DNA of 63,233 bases, filler included, from Reclinomonas americana ATCC 50394 (taxonomy: Eukaryota), in the NCBI GenBank assembly GCA_048213135.1. It is 6 parts of 2 records of this genome, joined end to end, with 100 filler letters (N's around TTAATTAATTAA, not from the genome) between each part and the next. Parts side by side here need not be neighbours in the genome. Positions count along the whole stretch, not along the records: positions 1 to 19,077 come from PS015125.1; positions 19,178 to 26,518 come from PS015125.1; positions 26,619 to 32,085 come from PS015125.1; positions 32,186 to 38,866 come from PS015125.1; positions 38,967 to 61,919 come from PS015125.1; positions 62,020 to 63,233 come from PS015131.1. One strand, 5' to 3'. This document shows, one piece after another, positions 12,001 through 62,596 of this stretch; position 1 is the first letter of the stretch; the number at the start of each line of letters is the position of its first letter. The translations under genes and the position numbers were made by a program. Below the pieces are notes generated by a model. That model ran no database searches and had not been told where the DNA came from. It saw nothing but the letters and a program-made list of their open reading frames with translations.

Positions 12001-15000
12001 AGGACGGTGTGTACACGAGACAAAGAGAAATCATGAGGGCCCTCTCACCGTNNNNNNNNNNNNNNNNNNNNNNNNNNNNNNNNNNNNNNNNNNNNNNNNN
12101 NNNNNNNNNNNNNNNNNNNNNNNNNNNNNNNNNNNNNNNNNNNNNNNNNNNNNNNNNNNNNNNNNNNNNNNNNNNNNNNNNNNNNNNNNNNNNNNNNNNN
12201 NNNNNNNNNNNNNNNNNNNNNNNNNNNNNNNNNNNNNNNNNNNNNNNNNNNGCACCGTGGGCGACATTACCGGATACCCGTCGTTGCCATTGACCAGGCC
12301 ATTGGAGCCTGCCGTGCCCGCCAGCGTGGACGCAGTGTACTGACCGGAGCCGGGCATAGTTTCGGTGAGACGGCGCACAATGTGCGTGCCCATCTGCGTC
12401 GTCGTGCAGCAGGCAAATGAGGACACACGAGGATGAATAGAGGAGACATATGCAACAACACAACGCAACATCAGTCACGTAAAAGTCCAGAGGTCCGCTG
12501 TAGTTGGGCGTCAGAGCCGTGTACGGCGGTGGACCAGTCACGATACCGACTGGAGATGAGTGCTTTCCAACGGAGGGACCACCAGCTGTCGACCCCGCCA
12601 TGTTGGCCGTGCCGGAGAGGATAGCGGTCATGTAGTCGAAATCGGTGTGGTCTGTTGTATACTGAAGATCCACCGTTGCCGCCTCGCCAAAATTGTTGTA
12701 CGCCGCAGTAACGGTGATGGAGGTGTTGGTGGCGGTGCGCGCAGACACATACGTGTCCTCGAATGTGGGGCGTAGAGCGGTGCGGAACGCGGCAGAGAGA
12801 GTTGCGTGCCACATGACAGGCAGCGACTTGAGAGTCACCGACGACGGATCCACAGCGTACTCCGACGGCTGCGTGCGCACGGCTACCATGCGGTAGAGCA
12901 CCAAGGTGTTCGGCGCCAGACCTGTCACCGAAGCACTCACAGAGTTGACGCTGGAGAGATCGGTCAGCGGCGTGGCCGCCGTCAGGTGGGTCACGGGCAT
13001 CTGAATTCGCCGGATTGAATCGCTGGCAGCCTGATCACAAGCAAATTCGTGAGACTGATGGCACAATGCGGAGAGCCAAAGGGCATGAACCACGCAACAT
13101 CCGCGACATAAATTGCTCGATTGTACTCGTCGAACACCAGTCCGGTGGGTAAATTGAAGGAAGCCAAGGGTCCATCTGTGTTGCCGAATTGGAAATAGCT
13201 GCCGGCTAGCGTAGTGACAGACACGTTGTTGTTTAGGAGGCGAATCTCGCGAATGGTACCAGCAGAATCCGACACGACGATGCGACCACTGCGTGGACCA
13301 ATCGCGATACCCTCCAGCTGCTGGAACCGAGCCGAGTTCTTGTCGCCATCAGCACCACCGTTGGTTGTCACACTACCGGCGATGGTCACCACAGAGCGCG
13401 CGTAGGGGCTAAACACTCGCACCGTGTATCGATCGCAAATGAACAGTTGCCCTCCGGAATTCACCGCCAGTCCACTAGGCCTGGTGAATAGCGCCCCTGT
13501 GCCAGTGCCGTCCACAGTGGAGGGTGACGCGAACATGGAGGGGTCACCGGCAACAGTATTGACATAGCCTGCGGGGCGACAGAAAAGTCAATATAGAGGG
13601 CAAGGCGACGACAAAAAGGAGGAATGGCGTGCGTACCAGTGGTAGGGTCGTAGCTGCGGATAACTTTGATGCCCGCGTCGGCAATGTACAGAACTCGGCG
13701 GTTCTGGTCGAACGCCAATTCCACCGGCGTACCAAATCGCGCATCCGTCCCAAAGCCATCAGTGTGCATGGTACCGACTGTGAAGGTACCAGCCACTGTC
13801 GACGTGACGCACGGTGTTGAGGAGCAGTCGAGGCGGCGAATGGAACGATTTGTCACGTCGGCCACATACAAGTGTGAACGATCGCGGTCCCACGCCAACC
13901 CTTGTGGATGACAGAAGCGCGGTGGCGAGTCGGACATGGGGTCGCAGGCACCATCATGACACGAACCGTAATCATACAAAGAACCGGTGCCGAGCGTCCA
14001 CGCCGTAATACAGTTCACGGATTGCTTGGTAATGTAAAACGTGGTGCTGCCAGAGCTGCTGTCCGTCTGCACGATTCCACGGGGGTAAAACGGCATGCCA
14101 AGGACCGTGTATGTGGTCGGCTTGAAACTCCATTGATCGGTCGTGTACTCGAATGCCGCGCTCATGAAAGACGACGCTCCGAGCGTGGTGGCCGTTCCCC
14201 GAAGTGTAGCACTCGTGGCCGTCCCATCCGCCGCACCCACTATTGACAGGGACGGCAAGAAACCGGTGGAACACACACCACCAGTGGTGGCGCGCGACAG
14301 TAACTGAGTGGAGGGATTGCGCAACATGAAATTGACCGTGTACGAACTCGCCGGCGCCAGATCCTCGATGCGCACCGAGAACGACGTGGTTGAAGTCGGA
14401 AAGGTGGTGACGTAGATGCGAGGGCGGCGCGGTAGCGACGCAGTGCGCAGCGTCTGCGATAAGGGGAAGGGGATAAGGGAAAGGGGCGAGAGGGGAAGGA
14501 GGAGAGGGGAAGGAGGAGAGGGGAAGGAGGAGAGGGGAGGGAGGAGAGGGGAAAGGGGAGGAGAGGGAAAGGGATGAAAGGAAGGGAGAGAGAGAGAGGG
14601 AGGTAAATATGAACTCGACGAAGTGGCAGGAGGAGAGTGAGTAATACGGGACAGGAGGGATTGAGTGACATCGAGAAAGAGAGGGAAACACGCGACAAGA
14701 GGATGGAAGTGAAAAAGGGACAGCAAGAGGGTACCTGCATGAGCTCGATGTGACTGGAAGAGACTGAGTAATATGAGACAGGGGGAATGGAGTGACATCG
14801 AGATAGCTCTCTCTCTCTCTCTCTCTGAGAGGGTACGCAACGTGCGCTACGCGGTCGACAATGATCACTCGATACGGTGTGTCACTGATGTAGACCAGAT
14901 CGGTGGGCGCCAGAAACGCCGCATTGGCCGAGCGGCCGTCCGTGTTGGCATTCACACTCGGGTTGCCGCCCGCAGTGGTGACGGCTCCGAGAAGGGTCAC

Positions 15001-62334: not shown

Positions 62335-62596
62335 TCACACCGCCGGTCCCCTACACGCACGCACAAATGAGATCAAAGGAGTGGCAGTCACCCAACTATG
62401 AGAGAGGGAGGCGCAACTCTCCACCAGGTACGAGCAGTGCAATGTTGTTGCCGTTGAGGAGAATCTCGTCGAGTTTGGTGATGCGAATGCCACCCTCGGT
62501 TTGCTCGCTGCGGGATGCGTGAGCATGCAGGAGAAGAGAGGGGGGGAAGACGAGAGAGAGTACGCAACTATTCGGTGACGTCGTCCAGCACCATGT
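62335..62596 (-). CDS. LSM5: U6 snRNA-associated Sm-like protein LSm5, last three exons
   Basis: MVLDDVTEY EQTEGGIRITKLDEILLNGNNIALLVPGGE GPAV* after removing introns 62508-62568 and 62351-62417. Confidence 0.95.

Follow-up and report, generated by a model that had tools for sequence, protein, structure and literature searches.

Sequence evidence for a discrete GTTGCG(T/C) class of 5' splice sites beside ordinary donors in Reclinomonas americana

We analysed a stretch of 63,233 bases from the genome of Reclinomonas americana ATCC 50394 (assembly GCA_048213135.1), hereafter the window, in which short introns beginning with GTTGCGT or GTTGCGC stand beside introns with ordinary donors. To judge from the sequence, these GTTGCG(T/C) donors form a real class of 5' splice sites, discrete and under strong constraint. 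The original prediction listed 24 such donors and held that they are real and coexist with ordinary ones. All 24 positions indeed carry GTTGCG(T/C) on the expected strand, 22 of them as GTTGCGT and two (47741 and 62417) as GTTGCGC, and they lie in the same genes as GTGAGT, GTGCGT and GTACGT donors. The host introns are short GT-AG introns of 50-100 nucleotides (nt) that end in CAG, preceded by a pyrimidine tract and a CTNAC-like branch site.

The heptamer GTTGCGT is present in 36 copies on the two strands of the window. Dinucleotide-preserving shuffles contain 12.86 +/- 3.69 copies, none of 100 shuffles reaching 36, and Markov models of order 1, 3 and 4 predict 11-15. The base following GTTGCG is T at 36 sites, C at 20, G at 13 and A at 7. 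About 26 of the 36 GTTGCGT copies are either donors of the original list (22) or further intron-like sites, and donors thus account for the excess of the motif. The related GTTGAGT is not enriched (7 sites, 10.1 expected) and opens at most one intron-like stretch. Such stretches are also opened by GTTTCGT at three of its five sites (31430 and 54622 on the minus strand, 43493 on the plus strand) and once by GTTGCAT (54966, minus strand); the displaced donor class may perhaps be better described as GTT(G/T)CG(T/C) with rare variants. Text searches of the literature that paired the motif with terms from splicing turned up nothing but primers and papers on other subjects, although sequence logos are not text and an earlier description may exist.

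The position of the cut can be fixed to the nucleotide in three introns, the first of which is the second intron of an Ebp2 gene (34040..34118, minus strand; 79 nt, GTTGCGT...CAG, phase 2), which we regard as validated. The Pfam Ebp2 profile is split over two minus-strand open reading frames (ORFs), covering profile positions 4-51 and then 50-189, and the locus is also matched by tblastn with fungal Ebp2. We collected 151 homologues and aligned those of at least 250 amino acids (aa) to the locus; 85 gave a high-scoring segment pair (HSP), among them 21 with matches in both exons. For 13 of these 21 the HSPs abut, leaving exactly the residues demanded by the split codon TT|T (Phe), with the match in the upstream exon ending in ..DDLxRE(x)A and that in the downstream exon beginning with YxQA. 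One further homologue fits once two intron-encoded residues are counted, and in the other seven an HSP overruns the splice site, which results in overlapping query ranges. None of the 21 requires an insertion, and no boundary pair other than 34118..34040 is predicted to yield the same Ebp2 message.

The other two introns interrupt NHL blades of a giant gene on the minus strand. Removal of the first (13031..13098; 68 nt, GTTGCGT...CAG, phase 0) yields ..YVAD|AASDSIRRI.., which is gap-free at the junction in comparison with four of four paralogous NHL blades in the downstream giant exon; reading through it gives no blade motif and meets stops. This intron is therefore validated by paralogues. 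Removal of the second (12394..12469; 76 nt, GTTGCGT...CAG, phase 0, 3' module score 14.0) yields ..YVTD|MGTHIVRRL.. and restores the blade motif YV(A/T)D|xGxHx(I/V)R, with weak E values of 0.002-0.009.

In all three introns (34118..34040, 13098..13031 and 12469..12394) the predicted cut is before the first G of GTTGCGT, so that GT comes first and AG last, and a conserved protein is restored by their removal. These junctions exclude the second GT of the heptamer, because a shift of 5 nt would break the frame. We also considered and rejected GTT|GCGT as the start of a GC-AG intron, since it adds one residue too many where the 13 abutting Ebp2 homologues allow exactly one bridging residue. The spacing from D to (I/V)R in the NHL blades likewise agrees with the GT reading and not with GC-AG.

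The composition of the sites sets them apart from the classical consensus. In every one of the 24 listed sites +3 is T, +4 is G, +5 is C and +6 is G, and none of these four bases occupies its position in any of 18 classical-donor seeds; +7 is T in 22 of the 24. This indicates a discrete class and not the tail of a degenerate consensus; we found no intermediates between the two, and past the heptamer's second GT there is no conservation. At the other end of the intron the class resembles classical introns, with CTCAC/CTGAC/CTAAC-like branch regions and pyrimidine tracts shortly upstream of the acceptor. Scores of the 3' module, whose model was trained on classical introns only, are about 4-17 for GTTGCG introns, 7-28 for classical seeds and 1.2 (median) for random GT sites. 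A U12-type identity was rejected, as the donor is GTTGCGT and not RTATCCTT, and the branch regions are not of the TCCTTRAY type. Rejected as well was an introner or other mobile-element family, given that an all-versus-all blastn of 27 introns disclosed nothing in common beyond the donor motif and some simple repeats 10-18 nt long.

We then compared all GT sites of the window in tests that are blind to positions +3 to +7. The first of them scored restoration of the reading frame: to pass, a site had to open a short intron with a decent 3' module, flanked on both sides by open frames of 40 codons or more and with its read-through broken. It was passed by 784 of 7,848 GT sites (10%), a fraction this high because open frames in this DNA are long by chance. 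GTTGCG passed at 21 of 76 sites (p 1.2e-5), the best of all hexamers, compared with 12/74 for GTGAGT, 7/66 for GTGCGT and 2/28 for GTTGAG. The second test scored a jump in T-minus-A skew just downstream of GT that is gone by +110, taken above the 90th percentile. Leaving aside the GTGTGT microsatellite, GTTGCG (17/76), GTGAGT (16/71) and GTGCGT (13/59) came out on top. The third test worked from the acceptor side, with a model of branch site, acceptor and composition trained solely on the 18 classical-donor seeds. The upstream window was free of N for 144 of its 150 best acceptors; 15 of these had GTTGCG[TC] alone 45-130 nt upstream, compared with 3 of 148 downstream decoy windows (Fisher p 0.003). 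The corresponding numbers for classical donors alone were 28 and 18 (Fisher p 0.11).

With about 0.8 expected, a gene model equally blind to +3 to +7 chose GTTGCG for 5 of its 76 introns; self-training raised this to 7 of 80, a tie with GTGCGT. Decoy dinucleotides in place of GT gave this model 61-71 introns, compared with 76 for GT; it places donors poorly, and we used it solely for the tally of hexamers. Reading frames chosen automatically agree with the first GT at 16 of 28 sites in a hand tally, where one third is expected (p 0.008). Other approaches were less informative: a self-trained gene finder with GT-only donors drifted to wrong strands, expectation-maximization on the 5-mers after GT, using composition and 3' signals, was too noisy and put GTTGCGT on top only at the loosest null weight, and a listing by ORF continuity met too many chance open frames for an intron census.

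On these grounds GTTGCG is one of the three main donor hexamers of the window. The original prediction put the class at very roughly a third of the introns that could be modelled. Since the three blind tests place GTTGCG on a par with GTGAGT and GTGCGT or ahead of them, a share of roughly a third for GTTGCG(T/C) is plausible; the estimate has rough support from these GT-site tests.

One may still ask whether the class is an artefact, composed of a chance motif or repeat, of introns mis-modelled at the second GT or as GC-AG introns, or of young introner copies. In its favour, chance open frames are long in GC-rich DNA, as the 10% pass rate of the frame test illustrates, and the donor-blind model often took the GT that lies 5 nt downstream. 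This explanation is nevertheless scarcely credible. The three junctions fix the first G, as shifts of 3 or 5 nt add a residue or break the frame when set against 13 homologues and four blades. Furthermore, it must contend with the lack of conservation beyond the second GT, with introns that have only the motif and simple repeats in common, and with the 36 copies that no shuffle reached.

The original prediction described this donor as the normal one shifted by one nucleotide, and for one subtype the description holds. Together with its next base the heptamer reads |GTTGCGTG; compared with the classical G|GTGCGTG, T takes the place of one G and the cut falls one base earlier, leaving the core displaced by one base. 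The flanking preference moves with the register, as at shifted U1-register sites: G at -1 is found in 3 of 24 sites of the class versus 10 of 18 classical seeds (Fisher p 0.006), and G at +8 parallels the G at +7 of classical donors. A at -1 is found in 13 of 29 sites (p 0.002 against a 20% background). GTCGCG, GTAGCG and GTGGCG are at background level and not used, so the extra base must be T. The shift does not, however, extend to the normal donor as a whole, being confined to the GCGT subtype. With C and A at +4 of classical donors in a ratio of 9:7, about 12 of 29 displaced sites would be expected to be GTTGAGT-like; 0-1 were seen (p 1e-6).

For the recognition of such sites the original prediction suggested a variant U1/U6 snRNA or altered proofreading proteins. 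In the simplest case U1 and U6 would be unchanged and canonical, and the sites would be read like the rare shifted or +2/+3-bulged sites of humans, only far more commonly, their invariance reflecting the keeping of the remaining contacts. No new component would be required, the geometry is the same as that of the human registers described in PMC4856993, and the depletion of G and enrichment of A at -1 fit a +1 shift, as does the obligatory T at +3. We nonetheless hold this rather unlikely. Duplex energies were calculated in a nearest-neighbour model from the U1 5' end that PMC4856993 gives for humans. With this canonical end, class members without G(-1) reach -1.1 to -1.4 kcal/mol, while unused controls reach up to -5.7 and the likewise unused GUUGAGU -4.8. 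Pairing no better than that of unused controls would make a plain shift on an unchanged U1 a poor explanation. In addition, C at +5 would be mismatched, so that one would not expect it to be invariant; A should occur there at the frequency given above.

We tentatively favour, at a little short of even confidence, a reading in which the sites are recognized in a displaced register by the end of a small nuclear RNA (snRNA) adapted to GCGU-type donors. The core UGCGU(G) would be common to ordinary G|GUGCGUG donors and to the GTTGCG class, where it lies one nucleotide further from the cut; from this we infer that the pairing register is displaced by one nucleotide. G+1 would then sit in the slot of the usual exon -1 G, and U+3 in that of the usual U+2; the choice of the GU used in catalysis would be left to the U6/U5/Prp8 core at a later stage. 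The invariance of G+4 and C+5, the disuse of GUUGAGU and the negligible canonical pairing suggest a partner that differs from the textbook U1 end ACUUACCU. One would expect U1, or one U1 paralogue, to have a 5' end adapted to GCGU-type sites and containing ...ACGCAC... or ...ACGCAAC...; hypothetical U1 ends complementary to GCGU give energies of -7 to -11 kcal/mol for class members. A more specific claim, that U1 or a second U1-like snRNA is complementary to GUUGCGU (as ACGCAAC or ACGCAC) and that a third of introns form a separately recognized class within the major spliceosome, with C at +5 in place of a nearly universal G, is in our opinion doubtful.

Several points weigh against the adapted-end reading. 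Every step of recognition in it is deduced, and the duplex energies are toy calculations in which the U1 end is human, the flanks are invented and proteins such as U1C play no part. A hypothetical ACGCAC end separates used sites (-7.0 to -8.3) poorly from unused ones (up to -7.2). A contiguous ACGCAAC-CUG end separates them better but would favour G(-1), which is depleted. The apparent use of GTTTCGT, intron-like at three of five sites, clashes with strict pairing at G+4. As for the samples, the classical comparison set comprises only 18 seeds, chosen by a regular expression and a T-richness filter, and the enrichment of A(-1) comes from 29 sites, five of them added beyond the original list and several unvalidated.

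A dedicated snRNA, either a U1 paralogue or a U1-like RNA, might instead pair contiguously with GUUGCGU and define a third discrete 5' class with an ordinary U2-type branch site and 3' end. A motif near-invariant at seven positions resembles classes that are recognized by full complementarity, nothing intermediate links it to the classical consensus, and a contiguous hypothetical partner gives the best separation (used sites -10.8 to -11.0, unused at most -7.3, in the toy model). No such RNA was seen, however, a scan of the whole window against Rfam at gathering thresholds giving no match; a partner ending in ...CCUG meets the same difficulty with the depleted G(-1), and the 3' signals are the same as in classical introns. 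We judge this improbable. A role of the heptamer as a donor combined with a site for a sequence-specific protein or other factor, as in regulated or enhancer-dependent splicing, and not as an snRNA register, would account for an invariant G+4 and C+5 that canonical snRNA contacts do not explain. The motif is, though, spread over unrelated genes across the window, including a housekeeping gene of rRNA processing, and there is no candidate factor, which makes this highly improbable. The adapted snRNA end thus stays our preferred, if tentative, reading.

Sites of the class were graded as strong or validated (34118, 13098, 12469, 23493, 41208, 46719, 47524, 47741, 62568 and 58537), moderate (34362, 37363, 39701, 46428 and 62417), supported as donors with an uncertain acceptor (14841, 16222 and 16843) or weak (18669, 43621, 44749, 40844 and 52572). 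Strong introns on the plus strand are 23493..23589 (97 nt, phase 1, open frames of 101 + 259 codons, 3' module score 15.4), 41208..41282 (75 nt with an in-frame stop inside, flanked by same-frame ORFs of 178 + >400 codons, score 17.5), 46719..46793 (75 nt, phase 2, 77 + 88 codons, score 15.4), 47524..47581 (58 nt, phase 2, 112 + 62 codons) and 47741..47806 (66 nt, GTTGCGC donor, phase 2, 54 + 325 codons). On the minus strand they include 58454..58537 (84 nt, phase 2, 94 + 222 codons) and 62508..62568 (61 nt, score 16.2). Three of these, with donors at 47741, 58537 and 62568, were also chosen by the donor-blind model, as was the moderate intron 37363..37424 (plus strand; 62 nt, phase 0, 253 + 33 codons). 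The donor at 23493 has a GTGCGT donor 13 nt downstream, at 23506 on the same strand; the two have a common acceptor and long open frames in different phases, and may form an alternative-donor pair.

Also graded as moderate are the plus-strand introns 39701..39764 (64 nt, with a rival GTGAGT donor 20 nt downstream) and 46428..46511 (84 nt, phase 2, open frames of 98 + 91 codons), together with 62351..62417 on the minus strand (67 nt, GTTGCGC donor, TAG acceptor). The first intron of Ebp2 (34262..34362, minus strand; GTTGCGT donor at 34362, phase 0, open frames of 71 + 128 codons) belongs here too; similarity to Ebp2 homologues begins at its acceptor, and the junction is not fixed by conserved residues. 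That acceptor (34262-34267, minus strand) is a tandem GAG|CAG of NAGNAG-like form, giving an intron of 98 or 101 nt.

The original prediction had marked 18669, 43621 and 44749 as weaker for being in frame and stop-free, and this caution proved well placed. The corresponding plus-strand candidates are 18669..18749 (81 nt), 43621..43680 (55-60 nt) and 44749..44808 (60 nt). Likewise weak are 40844..40914 (plus strand; 71 nt with CAT repeats, resembling a His repeat) and the GTTGCGT donor at 52566..52572 (minus strand), whose acceptor is uncertain, at 148-159 nt. The GTTGCGT at 26334..26340 (plus strand) is followed by a CT-rich stretch and then by an N gap before any acceptor. In addition, several members absent from the original list were found. 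Likely ones are 23725..23786 (plus strand; GTTGCGT, 62 nt), 25044..25094 (plus strand; GTTGCGT, 51 nt, open frames of 124 + 103 codons), a GTTGCG site at 28433 (plus strand) and 51643..51709 (minus strand; GTTGCGC, 67 nt, score 15.6), and a possible one is 21101..21164 (minus strand; GTTGCGT, 64 nt).

The giant NHL gene carries further donors of both classes. The GTTGCGT at 14835..14841 (minus strand) stands where an HSP to paralogues (15546..14839) ends, the exon end at 14842 coinciding with the end of paralogue similarity; its acceptor is uncertain. Downstream of it, 13950-14841 (minus strand) is a stretch of about 800-900 nt rich in CT/GA repeats, and paralogue similarity returns at 13949, so that this is either an intron unusually long for the window or a region with small exons hidden inside. 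The donor GTTGCGT at 16216..16222 (minus strand) follows ..ALFVGD| at the end of an NHL-blade-like exon; its acceptor is uncertain, and the frame modelled downstream of it looks non-coding. The donor at 16837..16843 (minus strand, GTTGCGT) follows an open frame of 160 codons; its acceptor is uncertain, the best candidate being 287 nt away. As an ordinary counterpart in the same gene, the intron 13569..13636 (minus strand) has a GTACGC donor, paralogue similarity ends at 13635, and the donor-blind model chose it.

The GTTGCGT introns at 13098, 12469, 14841 and 16222 (minus strand) interrupt their NHL blades nearly alike, after ..VAD|, ..VTD|, ..VDRVAH| and ..VGD|, respectively. Perhaps these are old paralogous introns in which the heptamer was retained and the interior diverged wholly. 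The 3' part of the gene is a single open frame at 1745-13348 (minus strand) of 3,868 codons, 74 of which are X owing to two gaps, and its intron-rich 5' part extends to about 17.9 kb. The gap-free section 1898-12040 (minus strand) encodes 3,381 aa without introns, with NHL and teneurin-NHL repeats and fn3-like domains (Pur_ac_phosph_N, PhoD_N, fn3). Pairs of ORFs equal in length and composition lie 1,932 bases apart (2888-3817 and 4820-5749; 3384-4088 and 5316-6020), and motif hits in the giant exon are duplicated at the same spacing, which points to a tandem duplication inside it.

The window contains 26 runs of N totalling 5,317 N, has a G+C content of about 59% outside gaps and abounds in (GA)n, (GT)n and (GTCT)n repeats. 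Five gaps (19078-19177, 26519-26618, 32086-32185, 38867-38966 and 61920-62019) each consist of 44 N, 12 bases and 44 N; 20 TTAATTA words agree with the six-frame-stop linker TTAATTAATTAA, and these gaps are thus artificial scaffold joins. Many of the ORFs are of low complexity. A Pfam profile search covered the 300 longest N-free ORFs and found few families among them, for which reason few junctions can be tested by homology. No close relative was seen in protein collections. A full HMMER search of 1.84 billion representative proteins matched the Ebp2 exon with a best identity of 48%, and the top named matches are taxonomically scattered over amoebozoans, green algae and a glaucophyte (Stygamoeba, Phalansterium, Haematococcus, Chlorokybus and Cyanoptyche). 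A word-based search with Ebp2 gave a single fungal match at 40% identity, and the same type of search with a PTPLA exon of the window gave no match.

Few features of spliceosomal introns are as conserved as G at +5 and a fixed distance from the cut to the core that pairs with U1 and U6. Routine use of a second donor, displaced and invariant in sequence, would make an organism a natural experiment on the handover of the 5' splice site from U1 to U6, and would show how much register slack the catalytic core has and how splice sites evolve together with the 5' ends of snRNAs. In this genome, gene finders whose training relied on GTRAGT-type donors would model about a third of introns wrongly. The finding would be of high interest if genome-wide and RNA data agree with it.

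Within the window, the class resembles ordinary G|GTGCGT(G) donors in its core TGCGT(G), intron length, branch-like motif, CAG end and occurrence in the same genes; it differs in being cut one base upstream of the core, in having A or T instead of G at -1 and in lacking an A-for-C alternative. The donor consensus of Entamoeba, GUUUGU, has U at +3, keeps G at +5 and is the only consensus there; the window class shares the U+3 but has C+5 and G+6, and stands beside GTRMGT donors. In humans, work by Roca and Krainer in 2009 and by Roca and colleagues in 2012 reportedly described atypical 5' splice sites that pair with U1 in a shifted (+1) or +2/+3-bulged manner. Shifted and bulged U1 registers at human 5' splice sites are also described by Tan et al. 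2016 (PMC4856993), a paper which puts validated non-canonical registers at about 1.5% of sites, compared with 0.9% for GC-AG and 0.36% for U12-type. Those human sites are like the window class in being cut at GU, in an extra nucleotide that puts the usual +5 G at +6, in the loss of G(-1) and in being otherwise U2-type. They are, however, diverse in sequence, whereas the window class is one near-invariant heptamer, and the need for C+5 and the negligible predicted pairing to canonical U1 are unlike them. With U12-type introns the class has in common a sharply defined, conserved donor beside a degenerate major class; it differs in its donor, in its CTNAC-like branch site and pyrimidine tract, and in a frequency far above the human U12-type value given in PMC4856993. 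A start signal of the GTTGCGT type is only a rare oddity in well-studied organisms, and here it plausibly opens about a third of short introns.

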